40,694 bases of DNA. Source: a virus (taxonomy: Duplodnaviria; Heunggongvirae; Uroviricota; Caudoviricetes). Location of the stretch: IMG/VR virus record IMGVR_UViG_2541047798_000002. One strand, 5' to 3'. Shown here in pieces: positions 2,321-7,505 of the stretch. The notes under the pieces are model-generated. The model was not told the DNA's origin. It was given only the letters and a program-made list of their open reading frames with translations, and did not search any database. The position numbers and the translations under genes were made by a program. Every line of letters starts with the position of its first letter. Positions within the stretch are counted from its first letter, which is position 1.

Positions 2321-3160
2321 TTAGCCACGGTTAACCTCCTGCGGCGGTTCCGGTAGCGGCATCCAGTTGGTTACTCCATGCCATATACCAGTTAAGATTT
2401 CAAACCTTGGCTCTCTGCCTTTCTGTGTCTTGGCATATTCATTTCTTGTATATACGCATTGTCTAACTGCATATCCATTCCATCCAATAACTGTTTGTCT
2501 GATTTCAGGCATTCGCTCACTACAGCTTATCCAACCATCCGGAGTTACCGGAGAGTTGCCTGCCAGTCTACGCAAAACAGCCTTAACAGCCTCAATACGG
2601 TCATCATCGTAACTTTCTGCCGTATCTATGCGGTCGAGCATGATGATTGCGTTATCAATATCAGGATTGCCGGCCCACTCATTACCGCGATTGGATTCGG
2701 CAGCCTGGTTGCCGCGTACTGGTTGATTGTCGGCTTTACCCAGTCTGTCGTCGCTGCATGAATGCCCTTCCAGCCAGGCCAATGCTTGTCGCATGAAATA
2801 CGCAATATGTTTGCCGTGGTAATCGTCTTCATCGATGTGAAAAGCGATACTACGAATGTATTCAATTGCGTTTTCAATGGCCTCTAACGCTATCGGCGCT
2901 GGCGGGGCGATGCGTCCAAGCAACTTATTTACCTCTTTCGCCATCGCGTCATATTTATCTAAATGGCGATTAGCTTCTAAGCAGACTCGGCGCATCTGAT
3001 CTGAGTTAACTCGTTTAACTGGATCTGCTTCCAGCGATGCCAGAGCAATTCGTGCCAGTTCTTCCGCTTCTTCTGCTGGCAGTACAACGTTGCTACCAGG
3101 TCCGTATGTTTCGCGCCACTGCTTGATTGTCAGCAGTCGCTCTTTGGTTATAGTGGTCAT
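2321..3160 (-). CDS. Hypothetical phage protein, DUF551-like C-terminus
   Basis: 279-aa ORF; C-terminal ...WHGVTNWMPLPEPPQE resembles the W-x-PLPEPP signature I associate with DUF551 proteins of lambdoid prophages. Confidence 0.5.
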   Translation of the reverse strand: MTTITKERLLTIKQWRETYGPGSNVVLPAEEAEELARIALASLEADPVKRVNSDQMRRVCLEANRHLDKYDAMAKEVNKLLGRIAPPAPIALEAIENAIEYIRSIAFHIDEDDYHGKHIAYFMRQALAWLEGHSCSDDRLGKADNQPVRGNQAAESNRGNEWAGNPDIDNAIIMLDRIDTAESYDDDRIEAVKAVLRRLAGNSPVTPDGWISCSERMPEIRQTVIGWNGYAVRQCVYTRNEYAKTQKGREPRFEILTGIWHGVTNWMPLPEPPQEVNRG

Positions 3161-3170
3161 TTGTTAATCC

Positions 3171-3968
3171 TTAAACTGCTAGTTGCAATTGCATTTCAAA
3201 TCGGTCGCGTTGTTCACAATACGCAAGAGAACCAGGGCTATTGTGTGCCTCAATCCGTTCTACCATTAATGCTGCTCGTGTCTCTTTACTTGCAGGTGCA
3301 TAAGCCCCAGACCAGGCTTTATCAATACCGATGTTTCGAGCGACGTTCGTACTATCTGCGCTGGCTAAGGGTAATTTTGTGAATATCTGCGGATTTAACA
3401 TGCGCAATCCATGTAGTTTCGCAACCGGCTGACCATACTCATCAACAATGTGACGAATCAGGTCTTTCATTCTGGCTACCGCAAGAGTTGGGCGCTTTAC
3501 GTCATAGTCGCCACAACTACCGATAGCCACTCGCGGAAACTCATTGCACAAATGAATAAATCGCTCGTCACTTTCATTCATGTGCCACACTGGAACGCCA
3601 GCTAGTTTTCCGTGAGGCCACTCATTCAGAAGCGCATCATTTTCTTCCTCTCCGCCATCAATAACATCAGGGATAATGGCAAAATCGAATCCTGGGTGAT
3701 TCTTCCAGCGAGCAACAAACTCGTAGTAATCGCTCCAGTCGATTTTGTTTTTGCCAGCTGCTTTCCAGGCGGTGAATGCACCGTTGTCCAGTGCGAACGA
3801 CTGACAGTATTCAGCAGCGAGATTGATCTGGCCTGAATGCGCAAAACTGATAAACGCATGTCGCCCTTTCCATGCTCTCATGGCGCACGTATCAGGAGTA
3901 ATAGGCCCACCGTGATAGTGAATCATCTCACTCTCCTTTGATGCGAATGCCAGCGGCACGGGAATCAT
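3171..3968 (-). CDS. Hypothetical protein; possible TGT/DpdA-like (tRNA-guanine transglycosylase fold) enzyme
   Basis: 265-aa ORF. Segments FALDNGAF (cf. TGT LTDSGGFQ), DFAIIPDV, RVAIGSCGDYD (cf. TGT GYAVGGLAVGE) and LHGLRM (cf. LMGVG) line up in order with E. coli Tgt as recalled; no CxCxxC zinc site seen. Function call is tentative. Confidence 0.3.
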   Translation of the reverse strand: MIPVPLAFASKESEMIHYHGGPITPDTCAMRAWKGRHAFISFAHSGQINLAAEYCQSFALDNGAFTAWKAAGKNKIDWSDYYEFVARWKNHPGFDFAIIPDVIDGGEEENDALLNEWPHGKLAGVPVWHMNESDERFIHLCNEFPRVAIGSCGDYDVKRPTLAVARMKDLIRHIVDEYGQPVAKLHGLRMLNPQIFTKLPLASADSTNVARNIGIDKAWSGAYAPASKETRAALMVERIEAHNSPGSLAYCEQRDRFEMQLQLAV

Positions 3969-4698
3969 TCCATCGCTTTACTTCTTCACGAATTACGTCA
4001 ATGCATTCTTTCGAATCCATTAGGTAATCTTCATCAAAAAGCCTTTCCTGTTCGTTTTCTATCGCAACAATGATTGCTTCAACTAACTTTTGTGCCTGAG
4101 AACCACTTTCTAACTCTGCAATGCGCTTCTCTGCGGCTTCCAGCTTCTCGCGCATATCGTCAACGTACTCGACCAGAGATCCGCCAGCAGGAATTTCGCA
4201 CTCCTCGACCAGTTGGAAGTAGATATCAGCTGCGGCCCGTGTGTTGCTATGCCTAGCGTCGCCCATCTCACCTTCACGAAGAGCATCGCGTTCGGCGGTA
4301 AGATTGGCTATTTTGCTGTCTTTGCCTTCAAGCTCAACGCGCAGCTTCCCTACCGTTAGCGCAATATCCTCGTTCTCCTGGTCGCGGCGTTTGATGTATT
4401 GCTGGTTTCTTTCCCGTTCATCCAGCAGTGCCAGCACGGTAGCCGGGTTAGCCTCTGCTATGAATTCAGCGTTTGCATAAGCCTGAGCATCTGATTCAAT
4501 CAGGCAGTTAACATGACATTCCGCAATCACGCCACCGGGTTCTCCTTTCCATTTTTGACAAACAAAAACTCCTGTTAAATTGCCGTGCTGGTTAACAGAT
4601 GTATGCCCTACGATGTAGCTTCCTTTAGTTGCTTTCTCTGCCGCCTCACGCAGTACCTGATAGTTAATGTTGCTCACTGGTTGCCTCCTTTGCGCCAC
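3928..4698 (-). CDS. Ead/Ea22-like protein
   Basis: 256-aa ORF with N-terminal [19 protein letters not shown]-type segment and central coiled-coil-like acidic region, typical of Ea22-like early-left proteins. Confidence 0.55.
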
Positions 4699-5171: not shown

Positions 5172-5759
5172 TCAGAAAGGAGGGTAATCGTTCTGGCTGT
5201 AACCATAATCATCTGCATGATTATGGCTTACGTTTTTAGAGCGATTGTCTTTATCTTTGAGGCTGGCAACCATGTTGGCGATAGTTTCTGGTTGCTTGCC
5301 TTCCGCCTTTTCTTTAAGGGTTTGACCTGTTTGTGCAATAAACGGGATGCGTATTTCCATCTGGTAGCTGTCTGCGCCAGTCTTTTTGTTTGTGGTTAAT
5401 ACTTTCTGGAGCACTAACCCGATTTTCTTTCCATGAAACTCAGGAGCAACAAATTTACTGGCGGAAACCATATGTTGCGTTAATTGTCCAATCCCGGCAC
5501 ACCCCATCATGGCGTGAACGACATTTGCGCCAAATTTGTTTTCCGTTCCGTCATTTTTCTGAACACAGACGCTAAGATATTGGATTTTACGTCCGTCGTC
5601 AGATTCGCCAGAAAACTCAATAAATTTGGCTCCTTTTTCTGATTGCTTTAGTTCTGCTTCAGTAATGGTAATGATATGAGCACCAGTTTCGTTAATAAAA
5701 CCACCTTGCCCTGCGGTCAGTGCTGCTTCTTCGTTATAAGTAAAAATCACGTTGCTCAT
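5172..5759 (-). CDS. Putative ssDNA-binding protein partnered with Sak4
   Basis: 195-aa ORF overlapping the Sak4-like gene stop; acidic/aromatic C-terminal tail ...DDYGYSQNDYPPF reminiscent of the SSB C-terminal tail (DDDIPF); position matches Sak4-SSB pairs in P22-like phages such as HK620. Confidence 0.45.
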   Translation of the reverse strand: MSNVIFTYNEEAALTAGQGGFINETGAHIITITEAELKQSEKGAKFIEFSGESDDGRKIQYLSVCVQKNDGTENKFGANVVHAMMGCAGIGQLTQHMVSASKFVAPEFHGKKIGLVLQKVLTTNKKTGADSYQMEIRIPFIAQTGQTLKEKAEGKQPETIANMVASLKDKDNRSKNVSHNHADDYGYSQNDYPPF

Positions 5760-7304: not shown

Positions 7305-7505
7305 TCAGGCAGCCTTGTTGTTCTGTTTACCAAGTTCTCTGGCAATCATTGCCGTCGTTCGTATTGCCCATTTATCGACATATTTCCCATCTTCCATTAC
7401 AGGAAACATTTCTTCAGGCTTAACCATGCATTCCGATTGCAGCTTGCATCCATTGCATCGCTTGAATTGTCCACACCATTGATTCTTATCAATAGTCGTA
7501 GTCAT
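7305..7505 (-). CDS. ral: Ral-like restriction-alleviation protein
   Basis: 66-aa ORF MTTTIDKNQWCGQFKRCNGCKLQSECMVKPEEMFPVMEDGKYVDKWAIRTTAMIARELGKQNNKAA; size, position (between N and cIII) and sequence match lambda Ral as I remember it. Confidence 0.55.
   Translation of the reverse strand: MTTTIDKNQWCGQFKRCNGCKLQSECMVKPEEMFPVMEDGKYVDKWAIRTTAMIARELGKQNNKAA

Follow-up and report, generated by a model that had tools for sequence, protein, structure and literature searches.

A stand-alone DpdA-like gene in a P22-like Escherichia coli prophage probably encodes a minimal, zinc-less DNA-modifying enzyme of the tRNA-guanine transglycosylase superfamily

The window analyzed here is the whole 40,694-nt stretch of IMG/VR record IMGVR_UViG_2541047798_000002. 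It represents a P22-like prophage (HK620/CUS-3/phiv205-1 type) that is complete from integrase through tailspike, and its host is Escherichia coli. A minus-strand open reading frame (ORF) with an ATG start, 265 residues long, is located at 3171..3968. Our analysis indicates that the product of this gene is a phage DpdA that stands alone, a minimal zinc-less TIM-barrel enzyme of 251 residues that belongs to the tRNA-guanine transglycosylase (TGT) superfamily and acts on DNA. We estimate the probability of this reading to be about 0.72. Membership in the phage DpdA family is very likely, and activity on DNA in this phage is probable. A TGT-fold, DpdA-type enzyme had been proposed in a first-pass annotation of the same DNA. 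The proposal is now backed by homology to a validated phage DpdA, the predicted fold, conserved catalytic aspartates and orthologues that are listed as DpdA. Residue numbers refer to the 251-residue protein unless the 265-residue ORF is named.

The window protein matches PHROG 887 ('queuine tRNA-ribosyltransferase') with an E value of 2.6e-103. The same PHROG matches the DpdA of phage CAjan (8e-96), BcepGomr gp31, MED16 gp38 and Epa33 gp11. Pairwise BLASTP aligned the window protein with CAjan DpdA over 152 residues (E 4e-8) and with BcepGomr gp31 (E 6e-6), whose gene adjoins FolE-QueD-QueC-QueE. In hhalign, the CAjan DpdA family scored 95.7% when the query alignment consisted of close homologues. 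With a query alignment of 59 relatives at 33-55% identity it scored 98.9% (E 1.6e-17, 173 columns). At the sequence level, this similarity to the DpdA family is far beyond chance.

Searches with the single protein produced zero matches in Pfam, NCBIfam, PADLOC and PDB sequences, and a 69-sequence profile produced none in the PDB. For the TGT family (PF01702), which had been suggested as a check, the window protein has no Pfam match at E<=10 and none of the 59 relatives has one at E<=1. The check is formally negative, yet it is uninformative with regard to DpdA, because the validated CAjan and MED16 DpdA proteins are likewise without a Pfam match at E<=10. Neither family profile matched the single E. 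coli TGT sequence in hhalign, a single-sequence template being too weak.

As far as the family is concerned, the finding is not new, as the window gene is by sequence orthologous to proteins catalogued as DpdA in 2019. The 'DpdA-only' phage proteins in that list include those of Salmonella phage SPN3UB (YP_007011024), BTP1 (SIU02687), SfI, Athena1, HK106, SEN1, PEAT2 and 7-11 (Hutinet et al., 2019; PMC6884629, Suppl. Data 1). Phages of this kind were the largest group of the survey, accounting for 76 of 182 viruses (PMC6884629). Identity to the window protein is 92.0-92.4% over all 251 residues for the proteins of SPN3UB and BTP1 and 68% for those from SfI and Athena1. We found no published test of any lambdoid or P22-like DpdA member, and the gene goes unmentioned in the transcriptome paper on BTP1.

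The AlphaFold2 model, computed with 69 homologues as input, consists of alternating strand-helix units, with a predicted local distance difference test (pLDDT) score of 85.1 and a predicted template modeling (pTM) score of 0.85. The input alignment is shallow, all 69 homologues being at least 65% identical to the query. The predicted structure is a TGT-like (beta/alpha)8 TIM barrel. A Foldseek comparison of the model with the PDB ranked generic barrels first.

The active site can be traced in the sequence. Motifs LDNGAF, IIPDV, AIGSCG, LHGLR and SADST are located at residues 46, 84, 134, 171 and 189, respectively, and the series is collinear with CAjan DpdA and E. coli TGT (Table 1). The first four had been quoted in the first-pass annotation. 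They are all present in the order given there, and both order and spacing agree with E. coli TGT. The fifth, SADST, was absent from that list and holds the probable nucleophile Asp191. Among the 59 relatives, Asp47 and His172 are invariant, and Asp87, His115 and Asp191 are 98% conserved. His5, Pro86, Gly91, Asn96, Glu118, Gly136, Ser189 and Ser192 are at least 90% conserved.

Table 1. Corresponding active-site positions in the window protein and three relatives
Position	Window protein	CAjan DpdA	E. coli TGT	S. Montevideo DpdA
Asp1 (proposed general acid/base)	D47	D63	D89	D95
Asp2 (proposed base recognition)	D87	D105	D143	D130
GG motif	G136	G153	G213	
beta7 residue	H172	H187	M244	
Asp3 (proposed covalent nucleophile)	D191	D206	D264	D256
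beta7-to-Asp3 distance (residues)	19	19	20	

In E. coli TGT, we take D89, D143 and D264 to be the general acid/base, the base-recognition residue and the nucleophile. In bacterial DpdA these roles belong to D95, D130 and D256, which are invariant in the DpdA and TGT families, and mutation of D95 or D256 abolishes activity (PMC10164549). The register of Asp87 is uncertain by three residues, as in hhalign the partner of CAjan D105 is D90, which is less conserved. The assignment of Asp87 is based on its position just after predicted beta4, on spacing and on conservation rather than on hhalign. His172 occupies the position of Met244 in the TGT motif LMGVG and of H226 in Cap10, in which H226 is the hydrogen-bond partner of the nucleophile and forms a pair with D248 at similar spacing. 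The CxCxxC zinc motif is absent from both the 265- and the 251-residue versions, as had been stated, and conservation does not exceed 49% for any cysteine of the family. The missing zinc site has two precedents, CAjan DpdA and Cap10.

The 265-residue ORF is real, but its start has been corrected. In all likelihood, the dpdA-like gene starts at the second ATG (3926), which encodes Met15 of the ORF. A strong Shine-Dalgarno sequence, as read from the DNA, AAAGGAGAG, and the TGA of the upstream Ead/Ea22 gene precede it in the order AAAGGAGAG-TGA-G-ATG. Homologues are almost all 247-252 residues long, the first aligned residues in PHROG and tblastn are 12-15 of the 265-residue ORF, and PGAP called the corresponding 756-nt coding sequence (CDS) in E. 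coli IAI39. These observations together support the shorter gene, and the 14-codon extension upstream of it is probably not translated. Since the TGA at 3928..3930 lies one base before the ATG, translation of the dpdA-like gene is probably coupled to that of the Ead/Ea22 gene.

With CAjan proteins as queries, no homologues of FolE, QueD, QueC, QueE or YhhQ were found in the window or in 80 related IMG/VR loci. The 80 loci, taken from a set of at least 578 related ones, share 67% identity or more and come mostly from contigs of 40-50 kb. By gene content, the clade of the window gene is a stand-alone dpdA, and the lack of preQ0 genes in the window phage agrees with the earlier suggestion that such an enzyme relies on host preQ0. 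The idea of a conserved partner gene beside dpdA, such as a DpdC-like hydratase or a DpdB-like ATPase, was dropped, as neighbors are diverse beyond close relatives. Ead/Ea22-like and DUF551 genes flank dpdA at 92% identity or higher, and the neighbors are diverse at 67-91%. The two genes are frequent, not obligatory, neighbors.

More distant members of the family lie near genes of 7-deazaguanine metabolism or DNA modification. In Flyfo siphovirus Tbat1_6, the gene directly upstream of the homologue is of the Vut_1/YhhQ type (preQ0 transporter family), and Pseudanabaena phage Pam5 has a gene of this type two genes downstream. The homologue of Caulobacter phage DMCA directly adjoins a QueD-like gene, and a Dam methylase is near that of MED16. 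In Pseudomonas phage Epa33 (locus L088, 9001..11830), only 13 bases separate a 47%-identical homologue from the next gene, whose 696-residue product has a domain of the C-5 cytosine DNA methylase type. The arrangement suggests a possible two-enzyme DNA-modification module in a Hollowayvirus. The iggy dPreQ0 lineage was considered as a closer validated relative and dropped, the 47%-identical Epa33 homologue being in a Hollowayvirus with no preQ0 genes nearby.

Several unusual family members were also observed. A 421-residue candidate fusion (P0234) combines a D12-class Dam DNA methyltransferase domain (E 8.6e-62) with a DpdA-like C-terminal part, and in another protein (P0255) a DpdA-like part is linked with a tail baseplate hub domain. 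One member of a family alignment (A3) has an N6_N4 DNA methylase match (E 1.6e-14). In two IMG/VR loci (L063 and L072), an ORF of 756-757 residues begins right after the dpdA homologue with zero gap. Domain fusions were set aside as weak evidence of a DNA substrate, P0255 being clearly chimeric.

We propose that the enzyme would exchange bases on phage DNA post-replicatively, in lytic growth, while the phage genome replicates. Asp191 would act as the covalent nucleophile and Asp47 as the general acid/base. Asp87 together with His115 would read the base edge, and a free 7-deazaguanine base would resolve the covalent intermediate. Because the phage carries no folE, queD, queE or queC, this base, preQ0 or possibly the precursor ADG, would have to come from the E. 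coli queuosine pathway. E. coli makes preQ0 (Hutinet et al., 2019; PMC6884629). Orion, whose host is without the pathway, has no modification (PMC6884629). In published work, phage nt-1 DpdA2 expressed alone places host preQ0 into plasmid DNA in wild-type E. coli but not in a queD mutant.

We expect the product to be dPreQ0 or dADG, sparsely distributed and probably at specific sequences. The DpdA-only phage 7-11 contains 50 dADG per 10^6 nt, or 0.02% of G (PMC6884629). MED16 contains 354 dADG per 10^6 nt, or 0.13% of G, and dPreQ0 is nearly nil. Scaled to a genome of 40.7 kb, these two levels amount to about 4 to 29 modified bases, a number that implies rarity of the target sequence. The DNA of MED16 is cut by every G-containing restriction enzyme tried except Dam-sensitive ones. 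An anti-restriction function had been proposed for the gene. The very sparse dADG of the tested stand-alone enzymes and the unprotected MED16 DNA give it no support, and a general role of this kind is doubtful at best. The modification may benefit the phage in some other way, for example in evading one particular host defence.

The same data fit the alternative that survives best, a genuine DpdA whose DNA modification is biologically marginal or is for something other than restriction evasion. We consider it unlikely. The phage might make a few marks without gaining ordinary-restriction protection, or the gene might be a decaying passenger of a mosaic accessory region. It might also counter one specific defence, or supply a self/non-self or packaging signal. 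That dpdA has no fixed partner gene and moves between the early-left and nin regions is consistent with such a role. Against this reading, the family is very large and its catalytic residues are clearly under purifying selection, which argues for a selected function.

An RNA substrate is much less probable. A miniature TGT could remodel host tRNA during infection, for example at position 34. The founding members of the superfamily are tRNA enzymes using the same three aspartates, and the RefSeq label of the phage copies is 'queuine tRNA-ribosyltransferase', but the window protein is without the zinc subdomain and C-terminal regions by which TGTs hold tRNA. In addition, the closest validated relatives (CAjan) act on DNA, family members adjoin DNA methylases, and stand-alone relatives have modified DNA.

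It is highly improbable that the protein handles protein-attached 7-deazaguanine and modifies no DNA, as Cap10 of type IV CBASS (PDB 9ntn) would suggest. Cap10 binds a deazaguanylated CD-NTase and requires the QueC-like Cap9. It shares the lack of a zinc site with the window protein, and no sequence-level similarity between the two was detected. By tblastn no QueC homologue is found in the window, which was not searched for CD-NTase, and the neighbors of the gene are Ead/Ea22 and DUF551. Finally, an unrelated TIM barrel with coincidental TGT motifs would account for the Pfam miss and the Foldseek ranking, but it is effectively refuted at the sequence level by the hhalign match and the PHROG shared with CAjan DpdA, and the conserved triad in the right order and spacing and the YhhQ/QueD neighbors in the family also speak against it.

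The dpdA-like gene is part of a leftward early operon with the order Ral, Kil, Sak4-like ATPase, a 195-residue ORF, Abc2 anti-RecBCD, DUF2737, Ead/Ea22, dpdA-like, DUF551, AntA-like, Xis and Int (Table 2). The nearby gene described earlier as Ral-like is a true full-length Ral, 3.4 kb away on the same strand. The dpdA-like gene abuts both neighbors, and no promoter-like or terminator-like site of its own was seen. Given this and its position in the operon, it is expected to be expressed with the delayed-early genes in lytic growth, that is, only after induction or infection.

Table 2. Coordinates of the dpdA-like gene, its proposed active-site codons and nearby features in the window
Feature	Coordinates	Strand	Basis
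dpdA-like CDS, 251 residues, most likely true extent	3171..3926	-	start evidence; PHROG 887; hhalign to CAjan DpdA family; AlphaFold2 TIM barrel
5' extension of maximal ORF, 14 codons, overlapping the Ead/Ea22 gene end	3927..3968	-	homologue alignment starts; PGAP CDS length
Shine-Dalgarno AAAGGAGAG for ATG 3926	3931..3939	-	sequence reading
Asp47 codon (LDNGAF), proposed general acid/base	3786..3788	-	invariant in 59 relatives; aligned to CAjan LDSGAF
Asp87 codon (IIPDV), proposed base-recognition Asp	3666..3668	-	98% conserved; after predicted beta4; spacing
His172 codon (KLHGLR, beta7)	3411..3413	-	invariant; aligned to CAjan H187; 19 residues before Asp191
Asp191 codon (SADST), proposed covalent nucleophile	3354..3356	-	98% conserved; aligned to CAjan SCDSS
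DUF551-domain gene, directly downstream of dpdA-like gene	2321..3160	-	Pfam PF04448, E 1.2e-13
Ead/Ea22-like gene, directly upstream, same leftward early operon	3928..4698	-	Pfam PF13935, E 2.1e-34
Ral, full-length	7305..7505	-	Pfam PF11058, E 1.6e-48

Additional features of the region were noted. The 195-residue ORF (5172..5759, minus strand), located between the Sak4-like ATPase and Abc2, has no Pfam match at E<=0.01. Its equivalent is annotated as a single-strand DNA binding or DUF669 protein in related phages. Between 1000 and 8600, 15 terminator-like hairpins were counted against 8.1 +/- 2.7 in shuffled sequence (about twofold), and promoter-like sites were fewer (5 against 11.5 +/- 3.3). 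Several minus-strand hairpins follow Ral or surround Kil. The excess of hairpins may be a mark of an N-antiterminated early operon.

The trio of Ead/Ea22-like, dpdA and DUF551/Eaa genes is located in the pL early-left region of the window (2321..4698). The same trio is found in the nin region, past the replication genes, in E. coli IAI39 (locus L087, 3933..5980), where the Ea22 gene is a pseudogene, and in SPN3UB (locus L001, 4666..6789). The cassette apparently moves between two delayed-early accessory regions.

The family is large, with at least 7,845 clusters at 90% identity and 839 representatives at 50% identity. Those clusters are still called 'hypothetical protein' in most sources. Pfam and NCBIfam are blind to the family, and Pfam misses even the validated CAjan DpdA1. 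Among 5,426 complete E. coli genomes, 204 carry the gene, always under the PGAP label 'hypothetical protein'. The gap in annotation is real. A copy 92% identical to the enterobacterial gene of the window occurs in a 1,719-bp GenBank entry, OR850331.1, named 'Staphylococcus phage SA 1298 Kay', which is probably a mislabelled or contaminant sequence.

The 'DpdA-only' phages are the least understood group with respect to the inserted base, its sites, the origin of dADG without a known hydratase, and the benefit of few marks. As a long shot, we suggest that the stand-alone DpdAs of temperate enterobacterial phages are placers of a handful of sequence-specific 7-deazaguanine marks and not blanket anti-restriction devices. 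They might insert host ADG directly, which would explain dADG without a DpdC-like hydratase. Their purpose could then be another one, such as evading one defence, or marking or regulating the phage genome. An inducible P22-like E. coli prophage and host que mutants would make a convenient system for these questions. The answers also bear on the newly described Dag glycosylases, defences that attack deazaguanine-modified DNA.

E. coli Tgt (Pfam PF01702) acts on tRNA and contains a zinc site, an N-terminal beta-sheet lid and a C-terminal tRNA-binding part. The window protein has none of the three, and its substrate is expected to be DNA. The DpdA of S. Montevideo (PDB 7ui4), which is part of the bacterial Dpd restriction-modification system, has 413 residues, a CXCX2CX22H zinc site and a 128-residue DNA-binding insertion, Ins8. 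The window protein is without the last two. PADLOC found no DpdB ATPase or DpdC partner in the window protein or its two neighbors, and its DpdA model did not match.

CAjan DpdA1 (YP_009196829), together with those of 9g and BcepGomr, is a validated dPreQ0 inserter, and it is needed for the replacement of about 32% of G by dPreQ0 in CAjan (PMC6884629). The window protein is about 24% identical to it and 55 residues shorter, without the N-terminal ~35 and C-terminal ~90 residues of CAjan DpdA. The alignment covers about 170 residues and includes LD(N/S)GAF, a beta5 His, KLH(G/A) and S(A/C)DS(T/S), common to both. CAjan DpdA also has no CxCxxC. Its gene lies beside FolE, QueD, QueC, QueE and a YhhQ-like transporter, none of which was detected in the window phage.

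The stand-alone DpdAs of Pantoea phage MED16 (gp38) and Salmonella phage 7-11 belong to the same family, and that of MED16 is 38% identical to the window protein (E 3e-43). Like the window phage, MED16 and 7-11 carry no pathway genes. Their hosts have the queuosine pathway, as would be expected of the E. coli host of the window phage. Unlike it, they have lytic or unrelated phage backgrounds. The closest likeness is with the SPN3UB/BTP1-type DpdA, practically the same protein, which is also stand-alone, encoded in temperate lambdoid or P22-like phages and flanked by Ead/Ea22-like genes. The two differ in location. The window gene is in the pL early-left region of a phage with an E. coli host, whereas the SPN3UB and E. 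coli IAI39 copies are in the nin region after the replication genes.
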